This document shows positions 12,153 to 45,560 of a DNA stretch of 64,000 bases, one piece after another; positions within the stretch are counted from its first letter, which is position 1; each line of letters starts with the position of its first letter. This stretch comes from Podarcis cretensis (lineage: Eukaryota): NCBI GenBank assembly GCA_951804945.1, contig OX638155.1, positions 63,240,001-63,304,000 of the forward strand. Direction: 5' to 3'. The translations under genes were made by a program, and so were the position numbers. The notes under the pieces are model-generated. The model did no database searches. It was given only the letters and a program-made list of their open reading frames with translations, and was not told the DNA's origin.

Positions 12153-12404
12153 TTGCATGGACAGGCGGAGACCCCCCCAAGCCCCAGGTGACCCCCGGGA
12201 GGAATAATGACACCTGACAACATGCTTTGGGGATTAAAATTGGCCACAACTTTATTAAATTCTCAGATGTAGGAAGACCTTGGCTTAGGCATTAGGCGTT
12301 TATCCCTCCCAGTCCCCAGCCAAGGATCTGGGGAACATCAGGGTTATCTAAAGTGGGTGGGGATTGGACTGACTCTGGAGAATGTCTTTTCAAGCAGAGA
12401 GCCC
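12153..12404 (-). mobile_element. 3' fragment of the unclassified AATAAAGTTGTGGCC element family
   Basis: Shares GCCTAAGCCAAGG..CCTACATCTGA, AATAAAGTTGTGGCC and terminal GGTCTCCGCCTG...CAA with 44817-44960. Confidence 0.8.
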
Positions 12405-16278: not shown

Positions 16279-16969
16279 CCCATGACCCAGTTTCATGAGC
16301 TGTTGTCTTTTGCAGTTGGCTCCAGCTGGTGGATTCTGGGGCTCCAGCAAAAACCTAAGTAGATCTCACAAACCTAACGTCTAACCACCCCTGAGTAGGC
16401 ACAATTATTATACCCATATTGCAGATTCAGATGAGGCTGAGAGAACAATGGCTTACCTATCTAGTAAGATTATGGTCAGAGAGAGGCTTTCACCAGGGGT
16501 GACACCATTTTACACCAGCTTTTTGACACCCAGTGGTAAAATCAATATTACCAGATGGGTTTAGGGCAGGATGCAACAGCTCCACTCCCTGGGGTGACTT
16601 ACCATTAATCCTATGGAAATGCATGGATATTAATCAGCTTAAATGGACATGCTCCTGCATAATGACCTTGTGGATCAGATTTATATGGGACGTGAAAGAA
16701 AAGAGCCACAAATGCAAGCAGTACTGAGATAAGTCTTCCTCAAAGCGGGGGGGGGGAGCATGGTTAGAAATCAGTGCATAAACAAATTAGGGTATAAGGC
16801 ATGAAGATTAATTTCTCATGTGATGGGGAATATTGGAATGATTGCTACTAACTCCCACATGCAGAACAATTGGCATGGATAAAGAAAAGAAAAAGCTTAG
16901 TTTCTGGATAATCTAAGAATAGCTTATGTAAGAGGAAGAAATCGTGTCCTCCCTTAAAGAGGGCACATG

Positions 16970-17714
16970 TTGCAGTGAGACCTGGAAACCAAAACCCTGT
17001 GTTGTGGGTGGGTAAGATTGGTCAGCCACAACACCCGATTGGTAGGTCCCTCGATGCTGGGTTCAATCTGGCCAATGGGTGCAGTCCATCGAGGGACCTT
17101 TATATACCCATGCACGTGACCCAGAGCTTCCTCTTTTGGCATGTGCATTTAAAACACCCGCCCACCTCTCCCTACTTTTAGGGCTTTTGCGCTTGACCTT
17201 GCTATGCCATCGTGTATCATCTGTCGTTGGGATAGGGGCACGGCAGGAATTTTCCCCACTTGGCTGATTGGCTGTTGCCATTTGGGTTTCGTCTGCCGCG
17301 TAGCAAATCATCACAACTTGTAAGGTTGCGGATAGGCTCTGGTTCAGGTGATAGGGATGGGAGAACGCTCTCGCCATCCTTATGTGAAGGGTATTCTGTT
17401 AAAGGAATCCAGGGACTCAAATGGTTTGGTCAACCCTTGAGAGGGGGTTATGCCTGTGCCTGAGTCCAGGGGGACATCTGGGTGGCGGACATAGTCTGTT
17501 CCTGCCTTTCCACCTATCCAGGTGTTCACCATTGGCTCACCTGTGCTGGAACCCTGGGTCAGCACTACCTGCATGGCAGAGAGCTAGTCGAACCAGACCC
17601 TACACTTTCTGTAATCAATAAAGTTGTGGCCTAAATTCTGCCAAAAACCAAAACCAAAATTTGAGTCAAGTGTGAATTTATTTAGGGGAGAGGTTTCTGG
17701 GTCTGAACACGCAA
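16970..17714 (+). mobile_element. Unclassified 745-bp non-coding element with promoter and poly(A) module (possibly DIRS/Ngaro-derived)
   Basis: Imperfect inverted ends (TTGCAGTGAGACCTGGAAACC vs reverse complement of the right end TTGCGTGTTCAGACCCAGAAACC). CCAAT boxes and TTTATATA at ~17099. AATAAAGTTGTGGCC at 17617. No TSD. Confidence 0.75.
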
Positions 17715-19190: not shown

Positions 19191-19320
19191 ACTTTTGAGT
19201 AAGCATAAGGGCACTAAGGTACCAACACTAAACTGACTTACCTGAGAGTAAGTTCTCTTAATTTAGTGCTACTTACTCTGAGCAGCAATATTTAGGCTTG
19301 CGCTATAAGGTGACCCTATT

Positions 19321-20484
19321 GCAAACATGCGCTGGATTATGGAGAAAGCTAGAGAGTTCCAGAAAGACATTTACTTCTGCTTCATTGACTATGCAAAAGC
19401 CTTTGACTGTGTCGACCATGGCAAACTATGGCAAGTTCTTAAAGAACTATGGCAAGTTCTTAAAGAAATGGGAGTGCCTGATCACCTCATCTGTCTCCTG
19501 AGAAATCTCTATGTGGGACAAGAAGCTACAGTTAGAACTGGATATGGAACAACTGACTGGTTCAAAATTGGGAAAGGAGTACGACAAGGCTGCATTTTGT
19601 CTCCCTGCTTATTTAACTTATATGCAGAATTCATCATGCGAAAGGCTGGGCTGGATGAATCCCTAGCCGGAATTAAGATTGCCGGAAGAAATATCAACAA
19701 CCTCAGATATGCAGATGACACAACCTTGATGGCAGAAAGTGAGGAGGAATTAAAGAACCTTTTATTGAGGGTGAAAGAGGAGAGTGCAAAATATGGTCTG
19801 AAGCTCAACATCAAAAAAAACGAAGATCATGGCTACTGGTCCCATCACCTCCTGGCAAATAGAAGGGGAAGAAATGGAGGCAGTGAGAGATTTTACTTTC
19901 TTGGGCTCCATGCAGATGGTGACAGCAGCCACGAAATTAAAAGACGCCTGCTTCTTGGGAGAAGGGCAATGACAGGCCTAGACAGCATCTTGAGAAGTAG
20001 AGACATCACCTTGCCAACAAAGGTCCGTATAGTTAAAGCTATGGTTTTCCCAGTAGTGATGTATGGAAGTGAGAGCTGGACCATAAAGAAGGCTGATCGC
20101 TGAAGAATTGATGCTTTTGAATTATGGTGCTGGAGGAGACTCTTGAGAGTCCCATGGACTGCAAGAAGATCAAACCTCTCCATTCTGAAGGAAATCAGCC
20201 CTGAGTGCTCACTGGAAGGACAGATTGTGAAGCTGAGGCTCCAGTACTTTGGCCACCTCATGAGAAGAGAAGACTCCCTGGAGAAGACCCTGATGTTGGG
20301 AAAGATGGAGGGCACAAGGAGAAGGGGGCGACAGAGGACGAGATGGTTGGATAGTGTTTTCGAGGTTACCAGCATGAGTCTGACCAAGCTGCGGGGGGCA
20401 GTGGAGGACAGGAGTGCCTGGCGTTCTCTGGTCCATGGGGTCACGAAGAGTCGGACACGACTAAACGACTAAACAACACAACAA
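19321..20484 (+). mobile_element. 5'-truncated, inactivated Bov-B LINE (RT C-terminal half)
   Basis: RT motifs FIDYAKAFDCVDH, GVRQGCILSP and LRYADDTTL. In-frame 21-bp duplication at 19424-19465, frameshift at the poly-A near 19813, stop at 20101, (CAA) tail. Confidence 0.95.
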
Positions 20485-25051: not shown

Positions 25052-25388
25052 AAAGGTAAAGGGACACCTGACCATTAGGTCCAGTCATGGCCGACTCTGG
25101 AGCTGTGGTGCTCATCTCGCTTTATTAGCCGAGGGAGCCGGCGTACAGCTTCTGAGTCATGTGGCCAGCATGACTAAGCTGCTTCTGGCGAACCAGAGCA
25201 GCGCATGGAAACACTATTTACCTTACTGCCAGAGCGATACCTGTTTATCTACTTGCACTTTGACCTGCTTTCGAACTGCAAGGTTGGCAGGAGCTGGGAC
25301 CGAGCAAAGGGAGCTCACTCCGTCACGGGGATTCAAACTGCCGACCTTCTGATCGGCAAGTCCTAGGCTCTGTGGTTTAACCCACAGT
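25052..25388 (-). mobile_element. Sauria SINE (slightly 5'-truncated)
   Basis: Matches the copies at 26273 and 32251. (ACCTTT) tail. Confidence 0.92.
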
Positions 25389-26272: not shown

Positions 26273-26630
26273 GGGAGGGACACGGGTGGCGCTGTGGGTT
26301 AAACCACTGAGCCTAGGACTTGCCGATCAGAAGGTTGGCAGTTCTAATCCCCGCGATGGGGTGAGCTCCCATTGCTTGGTCTCAGCTCCTGCCAACCTAG
26401 CAGTTCGAAAGCACATCAAAGTGCAAGTAGATAAATAGGTACCGCTCCGGCGGGAAGGTAAACGGCGTTTCCGTGCACTGCTCTGGTTCGCCAGAAGCGG
26501 TTTAGTCATGCTGGCCACATGACCCGGAAGCTGTACGCCGGCTCCCTCGGCCAATAAAGCGAGATGAGCGCCGCAACGCCAGAGTCGGTCACGACTGGAC
26601 CTAATGGTCAGGGGTCCTTTTAGCTTTACC
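26273..26630 (+). mobile_element. Full-length Sauria SINE
   Basis: GGGACACGGGTGGCGCTGTGGGTTAAACC head, Bov-B-like tail ending CTTTACC. 14-bp TSD TAACCTAAAGACCT (26259-26272, 26631-26644). Confidence 0.95.
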
Positions 26631-27224: not shown

Positions 27225-29829
27225 TTGCTGTAAGACTGAGACCCTAAATATTTACTTGCATCACAGTCTTTACAGAACCTAGTCTTCAGTGATTCACCAA
27301 AAGATCTTAGAAAAGGCATCTGAACCAAGATGCAGAGCAAAATGCTTAAAAAATCACACTTTTCTCAATGTTGTGTAGCAGTTGTCCATCCAAAACAAAT
27401 GCATAGAAAAAAATGTTCATTATCTAGACCCAAATGCTATAATTGTGGATAAATTGCACATTATGGTCACAGACTAATAAAATTAGATACATTAAGACTA
27501 TTAAAAACAAATATATAAAAACATTCACCACCCCAAAAGAAGCCAACATAAAATTTCTTGTGATTTGCATTGCTGTTAGAAAAGATTTTGCAACTTTCCC
27601 CGTGCCCCTCAGCGGGACTCTGTTTCACCCCCCGGTCTGTTCCTCCTGCTCTGCCCCTGTTCTTCCCTCTTCCAGGTCCAAAAGGACCCACACATTGGCG
27701 GGTATCATTTGGACGTGCCTAAAATGGTCTCCACTTGTATTGGCCTTTTATGAAATTCTATCAATGGTGCTTAGTAAAAATCCTATAGGAAAAAGGCTCT
27801 ATATTCTGATGGCATGAGCATCATGACGACCAGTAGATTCTTATCTGCTGCAATCTTCAACCACCTTCACAGCCATCGTAACATACCGCATGTTATCTTC
27901 TGCCTGTTCTGTCATTGAGGACTTCTTGGATCATTCTTTGTCTATCTCTTCCCCCTTGACCTTACTGCCTTGAGTAACCCTACTGGAAATATGAGATGCT
28001 GAACGGCTTCGCTCACAAGGATCATAGGAACGTGCAAGCCCACTCACCACAACAAGGTGATTCATCGAGTGGGGGAGATTATATATATATATATATATCC
28101 ATCCATCCATTAGGGAATCCCTAGAACAGATTTAGGGGATGTGCTGGAAGATGGGGGAGGGGCACAGTGGCTGTTCCATTGCACAAGCAGAAATCCTTGC
28201 ACTTACTTATGAAATTACTTAGTGCTACGCTATAGTATTGAATTACAATTTTAACCATTAATATGTTTCCATGTTAATTAGACAACATCAAGACTTAAGT
28301 AAGAGTCCATGAAATAAGCTTTTTAAAAGATAGTGTGGTTTTTAATGGCATTCTCTTTTATACATCGAAAACTGTGCTTTTAGTCTTCAGAATAATCATC
28401 GTCCCTATTTACCTCAGTTTCTGTAACCTATTAGGAAATCATTTCCTGTAGTCTGTAATTATATTGAACAATTTACCTCATCATATTTCCATATGAATTA
28501 AGAAGTAAATAGGAAGGTTAAACAACAGAATAATCAGAGAGTAAGCGGGTAGCGGTTATTTTATTTTTCTGTTATTAATTCTAATAGCATGATTTACTAT
28601 AATGCTGTGAAGTCTCATTTAATGTAAGCATGTTTAATAGCCTATACAAGAGCTGTCAAGAAGGGTTTTGTTTTTTGATGGTTTTTTTTTTTTTGCTTTC
28701 CTATTGAGTGATCTAGTTTCCACTGAAATCAATGACAAATAACCCTTTATTATAATTAGGGCCATCACTCAATTAAAAATATTGTAACCAATCAATGCAA
28801 TGGGTTTTGCTCAATTAATTAATTAAGGCTGCAATCTAAACCCACGTACTTGGGAGTGAGCCCTAATGAATTGAATAAGGCTTACTGTTTAGGATTGCAC
28901 TGCAAATCTGCGTAAAGCTGTAGGTAACTGATCTCTAATTCTGCTGAAAATGCATACTTTCCTTTAGATAATAACTGCAGCAGCTGTAGCAAGTTACCAT
29001 CTTAAAATAGGTATTCCCTCCTGTGTGAGATGACACCTGCAATCCACAGTTCCTGTGTTCCATTAACTTCCATTTTTTAAAAAAGTAAGAAAATTTGGGA
29101 CATCTTTTTAAAACTGGATTTTGCAATTGTACAAAGAAGTGAGAAAAACAAAAGTGCACAACAAAGGGAAGAAAACAACAGAGTACATCCCAAACAGGGG
29201 GAACATGAGGTCAAGAACACTTTACAACAAAATTGAATATAACTTAAAGAAGATCATGGGAGTCCATCTGTTACACAGATGGAAGAGTGTGTTATGCAGA
29301 ACACATCATAGAATCATAGATGTCCTTTGATGTGTCTGACAAGTGGCCCTGTCTATCCAACTCAGGCAAGTTGAAAAAAATTCCACCATACAGCACTAAA
29401 CCACTGTGGTTTTTATTTATCCTTTATTAAACATAGTTTATGGGTAATTTTTTCCCCAATATTGCAAGAGGCCAGATGTTCTTATACTAAATTGGTAAAG
29501 ACAAATTGTTCAAGGAATTTCATTGTTGAACTACAGTTTGATGAGCAGAGGTTAACTAAAGCCACATAATTTGTTCAGATTGTACATCTTTGTTCAAGCC
29601 ATGAAAAAATAACAATAAAAATATGTCAGGAACATAGGCAGTATCTTCTTCCCATTCCCCCCTCCCCAGTAGGAATAGCAGCTGTTCAAACTTTGTCAGT
29701 AATCAGGGTGCATGGAAGTGAATATTTAGGATAATTAAGAAAATGCTGATGTTTCTGAAACCAAGCAAGTGGCAATTTGTTCTAAGGTCACTGGTCCTTC
29801 ATTCAGTAGAAATCTTTCAATCTGAAATA

Positions 29830-30080
29830 CAGGCGTACCTTGGAAGTCAAACAGAATCCATTCCAGAAGTCCATTCAACTTCCAAAATGTTCGAAAATCA
29901 AATCCTGGCTTCTGATTGGCTGCAGGAAGGGCCTGCAGCCAAACAGAAACCACGGAAGCCCCATCGGACGTTCGGGTTACAAAAGAACGTTGGCAAACCA
30001 GAACAATCATTTCCGGGTTTGTGGCATTCGGAAGTCAAAGCATTTGAGTTCCAGGGCATTCGGGATCCAAGGTACGACTG
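29830..30080. mobile_element. Tc1/pogo-type MITE (second family)
   Basis: TA|CAGGCGTACCTTGGA ... TCCAAGGTACGACTG|TA. Confidence 0.85.
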
Positions 30081-30164
30081 TACCACTTCTTGTCCCAGTG
30101 CGCAAGTTACAACTTCAAACTCTCATCTAATATCCCTAGATAGCTCTGCAGAGAGGTTAAGAGA

Positions 30165-30420
30165 GAACAACAACAACAAGAAGAGTTTGGATTTGATATC
30201 CCGCCTTTCACTCCCTTTAAGGAGTCTCAAAGCGGCTAACATTCTCCTTTCCCTTCCTCCCCCACAACAAACACTCTGTGAGGTGAGTGGGGCTGAGAGA
30301 TTTCAAAGAAGTGTGACTGGCCCAAGGTCACCCAGCAGCTGCATGTGGAGGAGCAGAGACGCGAACCCGGTTCACCAGATTACGAGACTACTACTCCTAA
30401 CCACTACACCACACTGGCTC
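30165..30420 (-). mobile_element. Squam3-like SINE
   Basis: Near-identical to the copies at 13143, 54954 and 58610. Tail is (CTT)n grading into (GTT)n. Confidence 0.9.
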
Positions 30421-32250
30421 TCCAAACAAATTGGAGAAATCCAAGGTGGCCATATTAAGAAAGTAGTTTTGAAATAGGGATTACTCAGATCTTTAAGCAT
30501 TTTTAGCTTGACCAAACTAAAGGGCAAAGCCCAGAGAGAACCAAGTCCCAACTATTTGATCAGATCCAGCCCCTTCTTTGCTCTCATGATTGCAAAAGTT
30601 AATTGGCGCTTTTGGAACATCTCAATGCAAGGTTTAGAAGTCTGCACCTCCCTCCATTCATTTTAGTATAATGTAATTTCATAAGCAGACAAAGGTGATT
30701 TATCTTGATATTATCTTTTTAACGGCTCAAATATTTTAATTGTTCAATCTAACTAAACAATTGCATGCTACAGTCCTAATCATACTGGATTGGGATTGAA
30801 TGTGTGCTTTATTAATCACACATATGGGTAACTTGGGAAAGACCCAAAAACCCAAGATCAGTGTGTGGCATTTAAGGCAGAATTCCTACAATTTAATAGA
30901 AAGGGACTACAAATGTCATTACTAGGAAAGACATCTTGCCTTTGGGCAGGTTGTAGCTCACCGGGTTTGTCAATCCAACCCCCTAGGATCCTCTCCAGGC
31001 AATATCCTTCACCAGCACAGCTCCGCACGCTCCTCAAATGATTTTTCCTGGCTGCAATATATCCTTGGACTTTTATGTGTGTCTTTTGGTTGTCTGGACA
31101 AAGGGTGTAGGGAGGTGTGTGAAAACTTCATGTTTTGGCATGGCTGCCATGTAACCTACTAAAAGGGAAGAGTCACATCCATGGTCCCACCCACTTTTGC
31201 TTCTGTTCCTTTAAGAATTCCTTCCTCATATAACACAGGCTCAACCCTTAAATGCAGGGTTGCTTCTAATATCACAAACTAGCTTTCCTCTATTATGTTG
31301 ACTCGCTGTGTAATATAAGCCTCTTTTGTATTTTGCTGCTGTTCCTTATTTAATACAACAACCTCAAAAGTGATCTACAGAATAACGAACCAGACATAAT
31401 AAGTTTCCCCTGGGATTGGAGAACCATTAATTATCAAAATGAATCCTCTCTGAATGCCTCCTAGACCAGTGGTCTGCCTCTATCTAGTTTGTGGTTGCCT
31501 CCATTGCCTCCATTATGAAGGAATTTAAGATTACCCAGGTGGAAGGTGCATTTGGGGGAAAGCAAAATATTTCTGCACTGCAGTGCAGAGATAAAATATC
31601 ACCCCTTATTAAGCAGCGAGAGGCAAGTGCTCTGACTGAATGCTTTAATCTTTGCACAAAACATTGAAAACAATCTTCTTGGCACGCAGAGTAAATATTA
31701 AAGCAGTGTGCTGGTTAACGTTATTCCTGGGAGTGGGACTAATGTCTAAAGAATGAGGAAAGAGATAAATAATGGCGAGGGATGGCTATGAAAAGGCAGT
31801 CTCAGAAGGGCATCTGCAACATAGAACCAGCACAAATAAAAGTGGCCATTGGTCCATCTAGCATAGCTTGCCGAGATACTCGTGTGTCAGAAATATTTTG
31901 CTCATTGTAATTATTATGCAAATAATAAGCTCTAAAAATTTTGTGTCCAGCATCCTGTGCCAAATTCCTCTCCCCCTCTCAGTGTGCTGCTGGCGTTTCA
32001 GGATTCATGTATCTATTAGAGATGTGCACAAGCCCTTTGTATCTGTGCTTTTTTAAAAAAAATATCCAATCTGCTTCTTGGTTGTTCTGTGAATGTAACC
32101 AATTCCCTTCAACAAAGATCTCCCATCTACATGTTTTACACATGCAGAGATGGGATGGGATATCCCATGTCTCAGGGGGTGGTCTGAAAGCACACAATGC
32201 AAGAACCTTGCTGAAGCTAAGCAGGTCTAGATTTAGTGAATGCCAGGTTA

Positions 32251-32610
32251 AAAGTAAAGGTAAAGGGACCCCTGACCATTAGGTCCAGTCGTGGCCGACT
32301 CTGGGGTTGCGGCGCTCATCTCGCTTTATTGGCTTAGGGAGCCGGCATACAGCTTCTGAGTCATGTGGCCAGCATGACTAAGCCACTTCTGGTGAACCAG
32401 AGCAGCGCACGGAAATCCGTTTACCTTCCCGCAGGAGCGGTACCTATTTATCTACTTGCACTTTGACATACCGTACTTTCGAACTGCTAGGTTGGCAGGA
32501 GCAGGAGCCGAGCAACGGGAGCTCACCCTGTCGTGGGGATTCAAACTGCTGACCTTCTGATCGGCAAGTCCTAGGCTCTGTGGTTTGACCCACAGCGCCA
32601 CCCGTGTCCC
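32251..32610 (-). mobile_element. Full-length Sauria SINE
   Basis: 14-bp TSD TGAATGCCAGGTTA (32237-32250, 32611-32624). Confidence 0.95.
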
Positions 32611-33294
32611 TGAATGCCAGGTTAGAAGTACCTGAAAGGGAAATGTCATGCCTCAGAATCCAAGACTGGCTGTCTTGAATGCCAAGGAGGAAAAGTACCA
32701 TTTCAATGCAACAAACAAACAGTATCACATCACTGACACTGGGCTGGGTTATCATGTAATCAGGTGTCATTAACTTCAATGAGCCTGTTTCCAGGTACAG
32801 CATAAGAGGACAAAATCTAATTTTGAATATTCTGGGAAGTTTGAGTTACTGTGCAAATTGATCAAGACCTAAAATAGATCCAACTGTGATCCTTCAACCA
32901 CTCTGAGGATCAGGATACTGATCAGTGAAGGGCTCTGCAAACATTAAATGCAATGTTTGAACAATTTCATAGCAATTACTTGAATCTTCCTTTTGAGGGA
33001 AACTCCCCCCAGCATATATTTATTTCTCTGTTTTGAGAACAGCAGTGCTGTTACTATACAGGTAACTCACATCTTATGCAGGGGTTATATTCCTGGTCAT
33101 CATGCATATAAGCAAAATCATGCAAAGCTGTTTAAAAATCACTGCACTTATCAGCGAGGGACAAACGCGGCTCTCACTCTTCCACTTAGTCTTCCTTCTT
33201 GTCTCTTTTGCTGGATGCTGTTGCAGATGGTATGAAGACCAGGTGGGGTTGACTGGTAGGCAGATGAAGTGCTTAACTGTGGTTCAGATCTAGA

Positions 33295-35881: not shown

Positions 35882-38866
35882 TCAGGCTGCGCCCTGACCA
35901 AATGCCAGGTGGAACAGCTCTGTCTTGCAGGCCCTGCGGAAAGATGTCAAGTCCTGCAGGACCCTTGTCTCTTGTGACAGAGCGTTCCACCAGGTTGGAG
36001 CCGCAGCCGAAAAAGCCCTGGCTCTAGTTGAGGCCAGCCTAACCTCTCTGAGGCCTAGGACCCTGAAGGTGTTTTTATTTGAAGATCGTAAGTTCCTCTG
36101 TGGGGCATACCAGGAGAGGCGGTCCCGTAGGTACGAGGGCCCTAGGCCGTATAGGGCTTTGAAGGTTAAAACCAGCACCTTAAACCTGATCCTGTACTCC
36201 ACCGGGAGCCAGTGCAGCTGGTATAGCACCGGATGAATGTGATCTCTAAGCGAAGACCCCGTAAGGAGTCTCGCTGCGGCATTCTGCACCCGCTGGAGTT
36301 TCTGGGTCAGTCTCAAGGGCAGCCCCACGTAGAGCGAGTTACAATAATCCAGTCTGGAGGTGACTGTCGCGTGGATCACAGTGGCTAGGTCAGGGCGAGA
36401 GAGGTAAGGAGCCAACTGCTTAGCTTGGCAGAGATGAAAAAATGCCGCCTTTGTTATAGCTGCAATCTGCGCCTCCATGGAGAGGGAGGTATCGAAGATT
36501 ACACCCAAACTCTTAACGGACGGTGCTGGCACTAATTGCACCCCCGCAAGAGATGGGAGTTGCCCCCTCAGTCCCATGTCATCCCGTCCCAGCCAGAGGA
36601 CCTCTGTCTTCGAAGGATTTAACTTCAACCGGCTCCCACGTAACCATCCAGCCACAGCCTCCAAGCATCTGATCAGTGTGTCTGGGGCCGAGTCCGGGTG
36701 GCCGTCCATCAACAAATAGAGTTGGGTGTCATCAGCATACTGATGGCAGCCCAGCCCAAAACTCCGGACAAGCTGGGCGAGGGGGCGCATAAAGATGTTA
36801 AAAAGCATCGGGGAGAGTATTGCACCCTGAGGCACACCACACACCAAGGAGTGGCGGGATGACAATTCCCCCCCAAGCGCCACCCTCTGTCCCCGACCAG
36901 AGAGAAACGAGCGCAGCCATTGAAGGACTGTGCCCTGGATCCCCACGTCGGCAAGGCGGTGGTCCAGGAGTTCGTGATCGACCATGTCGAAGGCTGCTGA
37001 CAGGTCTAGAAGAATCAGCAGCCCCAACCCGCCTCGATCCAGCTGCCTGCGGAGATCATCTGTTAGGGCGACCAGAGCCGTCTCGGTCCCATGACCAGCG
37101 CGGAAGCCGGACTGGAATGGATCCAGAGCTGATGTTTCATCCAGAAACCTACCAAGCTGTTCAGCAACGGCTCTCTCAATCACCTTACCCAGGAATGGAA
37201 GATTCGAAACCGGGCGGTAATTGGATAGATCTAAGGGATCTAATGATGTTTTCTTTAAGAGCGGGCGCACCACTGCCTCCTTCAGTTCCCCTGGGAATGT
37301 CCCGGTGCCAAGGGACAGATTGATGATATCCCCCAGGGGGGCCCGCACCTCGTCTGGACACGCTCTAATCAGCCAGGACGGGCACGGGTCGAGAGGACAG
37401 GTGGTGGGCTTTCCAGCTTGGAGGAGTCTGTCTACATCAGCTGGGGATATCCAGTCAAAGTGGTCCAATACTGAACCCGAGGACAGTCGAGGGGCCTCCA
37501 GTTCCTTTATTGTATCCAAATTGGCAGGGAGGTCATGGCGGAGCAACAAGACCTTCTCCGCAAAAAAGCTCGCAAATGCCTCACAGCTGTGTGTCAGATT
37601 GTTATTTAAATTTGGCTGTCCTTCGAGGGACGTTAAAGACCGAATTATACTAAATAATTGCGCCGGGCGAGAGCTAGCGGATGCAATGGAGGCCGAGAAG
37701 TAGGACTTTTTAGCGGCCTTCACTGCCATCTCGTAGGTTTTCATAAAAACCCTATAAGATGTTCTTGAAGCTCCGTCACGGGCACCCCGCCATGCTCGCT
37801 CTAGCCGTCTGAGGTCCCGCTTCATTTTCCGGAGCTCCTCGGTAAACCAGGGAGCCCGGTTTCTGCGGGGTCGCAGAGGGCGCTTAGGTGCGATCTCATT
37901 GATGGCTGCCAGGAGCTGGGTATTCCAGGCCTCAACAAGCTCAGTCAATGAGTCGCCAGGGGGAGAAAGGTCCCGCAAGGCTTGACGGAATCTATCAGGG
38001 TCCATCAGCCTCTGCGGGCGAGCCCAAATTGGCTCGCCACCCAAGCAGGGTGGGGGTGGAACGTCAATCCTGGCTTTCAGAGCATAGTGATCAGACCATG
38101 GCACCTTCATCGAAGGAAACATGATCACATCTATACCGACGCCAAAGATCAAATCCAGCGTGTGGCCTGCTTGATGTGTGGGGCCCGAAACAAACTGGGA
38201 GAGCCCTAGTGTCGCCATGGAAGACACCAGGTCCAGAGCCTGTGAGGAGGGAGTGGCATCAGCATGGATGTTGAAGTCCCCCAATACCAATAGGTTAGGG
38301 AACTCCAAGGCCCAGCCGGCCACCGCCTCCAGCAGGCCTGACAGGGCGGCTGCTGGTGCGCTAGGTGGCCGGTACAGCAGCCAGACAGCCAAGCTCACCT
38401 CGGAGCCCCACACTAGGCCAACACATTCAATGCCGGGGATCGATGGCGATGGTAGAGCCCTGAAAGAACAATCTTCCCGGATTAATAACGCCACCCCTCC
38501 CCCCCGGCCCACAGTCCGCGACTGGTGAAGGACGGAGAAACCCGGGGGCGCCATCTCTCGTAAGGTAACAGTATCCCCTTCGCGCACCCAGGTCTCAGTC
38601 ACACATGCCAGGTCAACCCCCTGCGAGGTGAAGAAATCTCGCAGGGTGGCGGTTTTGTTGCCTATAGACCTGGCATTGCACAACACCAGTGACGGAGGTG
38701 AGTAATCCTTGCTCACCCTACCCTCGTCTCTCGGAATGGGGCGCAGATTGGAAGGGGTACGAGCATATCCGTATCTCGATCCCCTTTGCCTATGACATCT
38801 GCCCCCACCGCCATACCTCCCTCGCCCCACCACGGTAGCAATCCCAAGCCTCATACTCGCCTCCAT
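35882..38866 (-). CDS. L2 LINE polyprotein: apurinic-like endonuclease plus reverse transcriptase, 994 aa, uninterrupted
   Basis: APE motifs CNARS, VTETW, LGDFN, TLDL and WSDH. RT motifs NYRPVSNLPFLGK, LLDLSAAFD, GVPQGAILSP and YADDTQLY. L2-type C-terminus SRLDYCNSL..GLP..LQRVQNAAARL..LHWLPV. Confidence 0.96.
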   Translation of the reverse strand: MEASMRLGIATVVGRGRYGGGGRCHRQRGSRYGYARTPSNLRPIPRDEGRVSKDYSPPSLVLCNARSIGNKTATLRDFFTSQGVDLACVTETWVREGDTVTLREMAPPGFSVLHQSRTVGRGGGVALLIREDCSFRALPSPSIPGIECVGLVWGSEVSLAVWLLYRPPSAPAAALSGLLEAVAGWALEFPNLLVLGDFNIHADATPSSQALDLVSSMATLGLSQFVSGPTHQAGHTLDLIFGVGIDVIMFPSMKVPWSDHYALKARIDVPPPPCLGGEPIWARPQRLMDPDRFRQALRDLSPPGDSLTELVEAWNTQLLAAINEIAPKRPLRPRRNRAPWFTEELRKMKRDLRRLERAWRGARDGASRTSYRVFMKTYEMAVKAAKKSYFSASIASASSRPAQLFSIIRSLTSLEGQPNLNNNLTHSCEAFASFFAEKVLLLRHDLPANLDTIKELEAPRLSSGSVLDHFDWISPADVDRLLQAGKPTTCPLDPCPSWLIRACPDEVRAPLGDIINLSLGTGTFPGELKEAVVRPLLKKTSLDPLDLSNYRPVSNLPFLGKVIERAVAEQLGRFLDETSALDPFQSGFRAGHGTETALVALTDDLRRQLDRGGLGLLILLDLSAAFDMVDHELLDHRLADVGIQGTVLQWLRSFLSGRGQRVALGGELSSRHSLVCGVPQGAILSPMLFNIFMRPLAQLVRSFGLGCHQYADDTQLYLLMDGHPDSAPDTLIRCLEAVAGWLRGSRLKLNPSKTEVLWLGRDDMGLRGQLPSLAGVQLVPAPSVKSLGVIFDTSLSMEAQIAAITKAAFFHLCQAKQLAPYLSRPDLATVIHATVTSRLDYCNSLYVGLPLRLTQKLQRVQNAAARLLTGSSLRDHIHPVLYQLHWLPVEYRIRFKVLVLTFKALYGLGPSYLRDRLSWYAPQRNLRSSNKNTFRVLGLREVRLASTRARAFSAAAPTWWNALSQETRVLQDLTSFRRACKTELFHLAFGQGAA

Positions 38867-41693: not shown

Positions 41694-41829
41694 CTGGCAT
41701 AGGCAAACTTGGCCCTCCAGATGTTTGGGGACTGCAACTCCCATCACCCCAAACTAACAGGATCAGTGGTCAGGGATGATGGGAGTTGTAGTCCCAAAAC
41801 ATCTGGAGGGCCGAGTTTGCCTATGCCTG
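41694..41829. mobile_element. Near-perfect foldback hAT-type MITE
   Basis: GGCATAGGCAAACTTGGCCCTCCAGATGTTT..CAACTCCCATCA and its reverse complement form a ~55-bp stem. Confidence 0.88.
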
Positions 41830-44816: not shown

Positions 44817-45560
44817 TTGTGTGCCCAGGCGGAGACCCCTAACCCCTGGGAGACAGTCCGAGAGCAATGAGTCACACATGGCAACGTGTATTGGGATTTA
44901 AAATGGCCACAACTTTATTAACAGTTTCAGATGTAGGAAACCTTGGCTTAGGCATTGGGAGTGTATCCCTCTCAGCCCCCCCCCCCAGAAGGGGAACTGA
45001 GGCACAGCAGGGTTAATCAGATCAGAGGGGGGCACTGCAAAATGCCTGTTTACACAGCCAGCCCCCCCCCTCTCCACGCAACTTTAGGAAGTTCATTGAC
45101 AACCTTTCAACGTATGGCCAGTGACTTCCTTCACACAAGCCCCTTTAACAGGGAACCTGAAAATGCCATTGTGAGGGGGGGGTGAGTCACCACTTCACGG
45201 CCACCCCCCATAAGAATAACCGACTAAAGGATTCCGCCCAAGGCCTAAAACCGCCAAAGTTGTGACAATTGCTAGGGGGAAGGTGAAACCTGAGGAGCAG
45301 GGAAAATTCCTTCCCAGCTCAACAGCAACCATCATAAGACCATAGCAATGCCCGCAAACCTCTCGGTCCACTCACCTGGCCCTGCCCCCAGTGAAGCTGC
45401 AGATTGCCTTGTTTAAATAGGTGTTTGGCAGGAACCCCAATAGTCCACAGCTGTGGGAAGGCAGGCCAGCTCAGGCCAACCGGCATGTCTCAGGGGAGAT
45501 TGGGAGTGCTGTGCGACAGTCCACAAATGGTGCCCACCGTCGGACAGGTGAGCGGTTAAT
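44817..45560 (-). mobile_element. Second, divergent member of the unclassified AATAAAGTTGTGGCC element family
   Basis: Same motif order as 16970-17714: TATTTAAA, TTGCTATG, GG.AGGAATTTTCCC, TAGCAA..TCACAACT, AATAAAGTTGTGGCC, terminal CACACAA. The 5' boundary is approximate. Confidence 0.75.

Follow-up and report, generated by a model that had tools for sequence, protein, structure and literature searches.

The question raised by this locus is whether a U-rich hairpin in a lizard repeat could act as an ENE, an RNA element that clamps the poly(A) tail, and how such an element, lying several hundred bases away, could find the tail at all. The window analyzed here, a stretch of 64,000 nucleotides from Podarcis cretensis (contig OX638155.1, positions 63,240,001 to 63,304,000), contains two diverged units with the features of LTRs and a fragment of a third relative (Table 1). 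Judged by comparison of the copies, the conserved RNA structure is real in both LTR-like units, and an ENE-like function is plausible on the modeled folds. To the more specific reading, in which a group of lizard LTR-type retroelements carries in R a poly(A) clamp of the ENE type, short and with a single domain, we give an even chance.

Table 1. Positions in the window of the repeat units and of the elements of the predicted RNA structure
Feature	Position	Strand	Remarks
Copy 1, solo-LTR-like unit	16968-17709	+	742 bp, TGTT...AACA ends; boundaries inferred
Copy 2, diverged solo-LTR-like unit	44822-45546	-	TGTCC...GGGCA ends; boundaries inferred
Copy 3, 3′ fragment of a relative	12153-12346	-	Carries 15-nt poly(A)-signal box
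TATA-like box (17101) and AGCTTC initiator-like motif (17125)	17101-17130	+	Common to copy 2
P1 outer stem, 5′ strand	17199-17207	+	Copy 1
Side hairpin within P1	17212-17241	+	Copy 1; loop GUUGG, third junction arm
Lower (basal) stem, 5′ strand	17242-17247	+	Copy 1; pairs with 17292-17297
Internal loop, 5′ side, AAUUUUC	17248-17254	+	Identical in copy 2
Upper stem and variable apical hairpin	17255-17286	+	Copy 1; stem 17255-17258/17283-17286
Internal loop, 3′ side, UUUCG	17287-17291	+	UUUCA in copy 2
Lower stem and P1, 3′ strands	17292-17306	+	Copy 1
Long-range helix, 5′ arm	17311-17345	+	Copy 1; invariant 9-mer 17311-17319 and further segments
Long-range helix, 3′ arm	17590-17631	+	Copy 1; includes box AATAAAGTTGTGGCC at 17617-17631
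P1, side arm, and ENE-like hairpin	45268-45349	-	Copy 2
Lower stem	45315-45309/45283-45277	-	Copy 2; flanks loops 45308-45302 and 45288-45284
Upper stem	45301-45298/45292-45289	-	Copy 2
Long-range helix, 5′ arm	45238-45265	-	Copy 2; same 9-mer at start
Long-range helix, 3′ arm and poly(A)-signal box	44905-44959	-	Copy 2; hexamer 44919-44914

The LTR character of the units is indicated by TG...CA ends, a TATA box, and AATAAA in U3-R-U5 order. The TATA box lies ~132 nt from the unit start in copy 1 and ~127 nt in copy 2, and AATAAA lies 93 and 98 nt, respectively, from the unit end; we infer that R begins near 17101-17130 and is ~515 nt long. Copy 1 is flanked by CACA/CGCA, an imperfect 4-bp target duplication, and copy 2 by CACC/CACA, so that, with the ends chosen here, each copy shows agreement at three of four bases; exact duplications exist at alternative TG/CA pairs, for example, a 6-bp one for copy 2. 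The insertions are not fresh, given the one mismatch per flanking duplication and a CpG depletion like that of the window (0.29 to 0.36 in the units versus 0.31). Among the window's frames, Pfam identified no retroelement gag, integrase, or recombinase frame next to the copies, and the units are therefore read, on these features, as solo LTRs of ERV, Gypsy, or Ngaro origin. The Pfam run covered 188 of the 203 frames of at least 70 aa, the 15 omitted ones overlapping the LINE at 35.8 to 39 kb, and its yield in the window was limited to two LINE-type RT frames and one weak match below the cutoff; an exact protein look-up returned no match. With respect to Ngaro, the Xenopus A and B repeats, given as 236 and 152 bp in the part of PMC9210276 drawn on here, are shorter than the lizard unit, and the lizard units are known as solo units alone.

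Other repeats surround the copies. A 264-aa RT fragment (RVT_1, E 3.8e-22) at 19309-20100 on the plus strand, 1.6 kb after copy 1, is taken as a LINE piece. On the minus strand, positions 35882-38866 contain an uninterrupted 994-aa LINE ORF with endonuclease and RT domains, whose product shares 95% identity with a UniRef protein of Podarcis muralis and which is probably a young insertion. A long inverted repeat at 41696-41827 is MITE-like, and both of its strands give mir-5408 scores that fall short of the gathering threshold. A 330-bp repeat, presumably a Sauria-type SINE, is present in several copies (25052-25387, 26292-26627, and 32254-32611), two of them as an inverted pair 904 nt apart, and a 251-codon open frame without a Pfam match (29722-30477, plus strand) overlaps a repeat copy.

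Copies 1 and 2 are nearly unalignable, with no blastn match between them and a global identity of 48% versus 46% for shuffles. Their global alignment score is 281 versus 187 ± 15 in 100 shuffles (maximum, 231.5), and they have ordered islands in common, namely, the P1 strands, loop blocks of 12 and 6 nt, a 9-mer (at 17311 in copy 1 and at 45265 in copy 2), and the 15-nt poly(A)-signal box. Because these islands are ordered and the global score is above that of every shuffle, the two copies are considered homologous. The box, for which no report was found in the literature, is identical in all three copies; copy 3, 76% identical to copy 2, has neither the hairpin nor the 9-mer, and searches of the window with the box and with the descriptor introduced below found no further copies with the hairpin.

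The strings quoted in the preliminary description of this locus were verified at their places in both copies, that of copy 2 lying on the minus strand. Two U-runs, U4 on the 5′ side and U3 on the 3′ side, make up much of an internal loop in which 11 of the 12 bases are identical between the copies. G-C pairs are adjacent to the U-runs or 1 nt off on the apical side and are 2 nt from them on the basal side, where AA/CR lies between. The strands of the upper stem are spaced 23 nt apart in copy 1 versus 5 nt in copy 2, and this variable apical length is as expected of a hairpin cap. The lower stem of copy 1, previously drawn with 7 bp, is effectively 6 bp, because G17298 had been drawn in two pairs. 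The enclosing stem P1 is present but is not simply nested around the hairpin; as it also encloses a side arm of 27 to 33 nt, the architecture is that of a three-way junction.

The compensatory change that had been proposed for the stems, with both U-tracts kept, is borne out. The stems differ at 9 of 22 positions, yet 11 of 11 pairs are kept, in a register set by the invariant loop blocks, through four double changes and one single change (G-U to G-C). When the changes were placed at random, all 11 pairs survived in 293 of 2,000,000 simulations, a value that applies to the comparison of two copies alone. A descriptor of G-C-rich stems around two U-runs, free of family-specific bases and with thresholds set after the motif had been seen, has two matches in 128 kb (both strands), at copies 1 and 2 only, where 0.1 were expected; 40 shuffles gave four matches, never two in one. 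Two looser settings recovered the same two sites, and no match was found in the window at U4/U4, U3/U4, or U5/U5 (at least four U's on the 3′ side). Rfam 15, which may hold no generic ENE model, gave nothing relevant for the whole window or for either unit at loose thresholds.

The orientation of the structure can be judged from its G-U pairs, which number 6 of 49 in the shared helices of copy 1 and 4 of 46 in those of copy 2 (10 of 95 together), with no non-pairs among the 49 or the 46. Since these G-U pairs would be A-C on the other strand, the LTR-sense strand is favored. Folding z-scores are weak alone and equally good antisense (-1.98, -2.08, -2.33, and -3.29); for the whole R regions, 0 of 100 and 1 of 100 shuffles fold as well. 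Separately, a GAAAC-like string had brought an antisense hammerhead into consideration, which was rejected by eye against the consensus, as no cleavage triplet follows the third stem and Rfam has no match.

In R-length contexts, copy 1 is predicted to fold largely as drawn, with the six inner lower-stem pairs at P 0.81 to 0.99, the upper stem at P 0.91 to 0.95, and 12 of 12 loop bases unpaired at P 0.91 to 1.00; the outer C-G pair of the lower stem reaches P 0.00 to 0.17. The same pairing had been claimed for copy 2, where every pair can form and an excised core of 40 to 51 nt folds as drawn (P 0.78 to 1.00), but where the fold predicted in context differs, the ENE-like stems having P 0.00 to 0.03 in 12 of 12 folds. 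A competing hairpin, in which the U4 run is base-paired, is predicted to be 4.6 to 4.7 kcal/mol more stable, and when the full R is constrained to contain all four helices, the penalty is 8.3 kcal/mol. Because the energy model scores no triples, this misfold lowers the case for an ENE without ending it; the lack of triples in the model is also why 30 added A's leave the predicted folds unchanged.

The 9-mer follows P1 by 3 to 4 nt, and its complement, which overlaps AAUAAA and continues beyond it, lies 306 nt downstream in copy 1 and 346 nt downstream in copy 2. In copy 1, the helix extends beyond the 9-mer by segments of 9, 4, and 8 bp and leaves the first four hexamer bases unpaired. Over five boundary choices for each copy, the core pairs of this long-range helix have P 0.88 to 1.00 in copy 1 and 0.76 to 0.99 in copy 2. 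As the 9-mer helix and the P1 core are invariant, neither can contribute covariation, and the arms outside the 9-mer were compared with shuffles instead. At 25 to 35 nt, pairing of arms from the same copy stands out (0.000 to 0.005 for copy 1 and 0.006 to 0.040 for copy 2), and swaps between copies 1 and 2 do no better than shuffles (0.07 to 0.77). The result weakens at 45 nt (0.09 to 0.11), two arm swaps with copy 3 also pass 0.05, and a register in copy 2 like the inner one of copy 1 lies 2 to 7 kcal/mol above the free ensemble. Among other AATAAA sites, 12 of 130 have an upstream complement of at least eight Watson-Crick pairs, all of them A-rich.

The interval to AATAAA, given previously as ~310 nt, is accurate for copy 1 (311 nt) but not for copy 2 (~350 nt). 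With the long-range helix, which brings the poly(A) signal to the U-loop, the distance problem is removed: from the U-loop to the inferred 3′ end there are 32 steps via the helix versus 354 nt in copy 1 and, with the fold imposed, 24 steps versus 393 nt in copy 2. On these models, the element would thus lie near the polyadenylated 3′ end, as predicted from the signal, and in the sense orientation, as is asked of an ENE. The designation as ENE-like is retained in part. In its favor is a conserved structure on the sense strand that lies upstream of a poly(A) signal and leaves a U-rich internal loop open; against it are U-tracts below the five triples of PAN, basal G-C pairs that are not adjacent to the U's, and the preference of copy 2 for another fold.

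Several smaller features of R may be recorded here. GUUG occurs in both side-hairpin loops (17226-17230, plus strand; 45323-45320, minus strand) and is complementary to CAAC of the 9-mer, so that a local pseudoknot competing with the long-range helix is possible, although the match may be due to chance. A second shared hairpin (17394-17406, plus strand; 45154-45140, minus strand) presents the loop GUUAA on differing stems; with its self-complementary UUAA, this might form a kissing loop. Three short A-runs just after the poly(A) box, at 17643-17659 (plus strand) and in copy 1 only, may be a third strand encoded in the unit itself or a site at which oligo(dT) misprimes. Splice-donor-like motifs occur in R at differing positions (17320-17324, plus strand; 45377-45371, minus strand) and may be relevant both to poly(A) suppression and to the earlier suggestion that the RNA is intronless.

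It can be hypothesized how these parts would work together. Pol II would start ~25 nt after the TATA box, and R (~515 nt) would fold such that the long-range helix loops out ~300 to 340 nt and brings the cleavage site next to the junction. Once polyadenylated, the RNA may fold its tail back into the U4/U3 loop and form U-A-U triples, about three in number. Further contacts in the minor groove or in a pocket could conceivably come from the mismatched AA/CR, from the basal G-C stem, and from P1, which is invariant. A tail docked in this way would be expected to slow deadenylation of the element RNA. Less firmly, it could be speculated that the long-range helix half-hides AAUAAA and so tunes poly(A)-site use between the two LTRs.

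One observation speaks against a clamp, in that the A and C bases of the loop and the P1 bases are as invariant as the U's, and a pure poly(A) clamp has no obvious need of any of them. This leads to the main rival, in which the loop is a sequence-specific protein site in R, with a role in CTE- or RexRE-like export, TAR-like trans-activation, or Gag/packaging, and closes by A-R, A-C, and U-U mismatches without a third strand. Such a site would explain why the P1 core and all but one of the 12 loop bases are invariant while the flanking stems vary freely, and why the hairpin lies 70 to 180 nt after the inferred start site; according to the portion of PMC12789967 used here, structured protein sites in R, such as TAR and RexRE, are the rule in retroviruses. 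The recurrence of the GUUAA loop on differing stems would suit a multi-motif RNP platform. We nevertheless regard a protein site as an unlikely explanation, if one of real weight, as Rfam gives no matches to such families, facing U-runs between G-C stems are the stated signature of an ENE, and the long-range helix sets the tail beside the loop; Pfam found no cognate coding region among the frames of the window. Were this rival right, the hairpin would still be an undescribed covarying RNA motif in the R region of a reptile retroelement.

Clearly less probable is a poly(A)-site switch, in which the feature under selection is the helix half-hiding AAUAAA and the U-loop is a flexible hinge. Here, the junction and the GUUG side loop would compete with the helix, silencing the signal in the 5′ LTR and freeing that in the 3′ LTR. 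The placement of the hexamer inside the long-range helix in both copies, the identity of the box in three copies, and the display of GUUG(G) by both side hairpins are consistent with a switch, and in HIV-1, hairpins at the poly(A) signal suppress 5′ polyadenylation, as described in the same portion of PMC12789967. The invariance of the loop sequence would be left unexplained, however, and a shared 4-mer in arms of 27 to 33 nt is within chance expectation. As R is the same in both LTRs, an outside trigger would also be needed, and none was found. A switch may act together with either the ENE or the protein-site reading.

There is a slim chance that an ENE-like element, once functional, has decayed or been repurposed in these solo copies, notably copy 2, or that the islands merely evolve slowly and pair by chance. 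Counting in favor of this reading are the predicted misfold of copy 2, the age of the insertions, and a local alignment score that random windows reach in 11 of 3000 cases, with the motif itself overlapped in at least 4. Chance is excluded by the simulated covariation and by the descriptor and 11-mer counts, and the shared-helix pairs are all intact in both copies. Finally, that the islands are DNA sites for LTR-binding factors (NF-kB/NFAT-like GGAATTTTCCC and IRF-like GGTTTC) with only incidental pairing is very improbable and largely refuted by the covariation, for while the 11-mer, which resembles Rel/NFAT motifs, occurs exactly twice in the window (0.05 expected) and an NFAT-like core is present in both copies, strict 10-bp kB and ISRE consensus patterns are unmatched in either unit, the two motifs are not equally spaced (a difference of 19 nt), and the four compensatory pairs, P1, and the long-range complementarity would go unexplained.

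Returning to the reading as an ENE-type clamp, a vertebrate LTR with an ENE would not be new in kind, since cases in stickleback retroviruses have been reported. What would be new, on the features described here, is that the loop is short and has an invariant AA/CR, that it sits in a junction, and that a helix links it to the poly(A) signal. Among the papers searched, none describes an ENE from a mobile element of a reptile or another amniote, although the supplements of the primary ENE surveys could list lizard ones; for vertebrate mobile elements, these papers place such a tail-protecting device only in one fish. A lizard ENE with so short a U-loop would suggest that a class of vertebrate elements escapes searches built around longer U-runs, and it would test how few triples suffice. 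How a distant ENE finds its tail would in turn have a concrete answer in the long-range helix.

More tentatively, and in our estimate probably going too far, a whole module of reptile LTRs can be envisaged in which a single helix holds the poly(A) signal and passes the new tail on to a minimal, three-triple ENE in the junction. Such a module would couple 3′-end formation to tail protection and would place an ENE in amniote mobile elements. Solo LTRs would then be potential sources of stable, PAN-like RNAs of ~500 nt and could donate self-stabilizing 3′ ends to host transcripts.

When placed beside known systems, the lizard hairpin is most readily compared with the ENE of KSHV PAN. The ENE signature in the parts of PMC7583470 and PMC13541005 used here is a U-rich internal loop next to G-C pairs, and both elements are stem-loops that lie upstream of a poly(A) signal and whose G-C-rich stems flank an asymmetric, U-rich internal loop. 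In the lizard loop, two further nucleotides between the 3′ U-run and the basal stem correspond to the AU bulge of PAN as described in that part of PMC13541005. The PAN ENE forms five triples (PMC7583470), whereas the lizard U4/U3 loop would allow at most about three canonical ones; for the model systems of the ENE review, four consecutive triples are cited as supporting a triplex, and three are given for telomerase. Also unlike in PAN, an invariant AA faces CR where the U's of the lizard loop give way to the basal stem, and the hairpin sits in a three-way junction, 370 to 390 nt from the signal but joined to it by a helix.

ENEs in mobile DNA are reported from plants, fungi, a slime mold, and stickleback retroviruses, also inside LTRs, in the sections of PMC7583470 and PMC13541005 drawn on; the lizard element, compared with these through reviews, differs in its amniote host. 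For Evade, G-C pairs immediately next to the U's are essential in the excerpt of PMC12501189 used here, whereas the basal G-C pairs of the lizard hairpin are 2 nt from the U's. Unlike the dENEs of Evade and TWIFB1, the lizard hairpin has one U-loop rather than two and does not qualify as a dENE, and no match to an adenosine triad or pocket motif is found in it. The MALAT1/MEN-beta triplex is similar in having a U-rich internal loop with a C in the U-run, but the lizard loop is far shorter and a canonical AAUAAA is present. A genomic A-rich third strand of the MALAT1 type is absent as a shared A-tract, runs of at least four A's occurring only in copy 1, after the signal. For a tRNA-like structure, ARAGORN reports 0 genes and Rfam none in either unit, with the proviso that mascRNA-like folds may be missed.

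The fold of R as a whole recalls a different group of systems. Retroviral R regions are 15 to 250 nt long in the relevant part of PMC12789967, a range that the inferred lizard R exceeds. The HTLV-1/BLV RexRE and the HIV-1 poly(A) hairpin resemble the lizard fold in that a long, folded R closes a distance at the 3′ end and AAUAAA lies in a helix. Unlike these, in which the fold joins the hexamer to the cleavage site or hides the hexamer locally, the lizard fold would join the hexamer region to an upstream U-loop.
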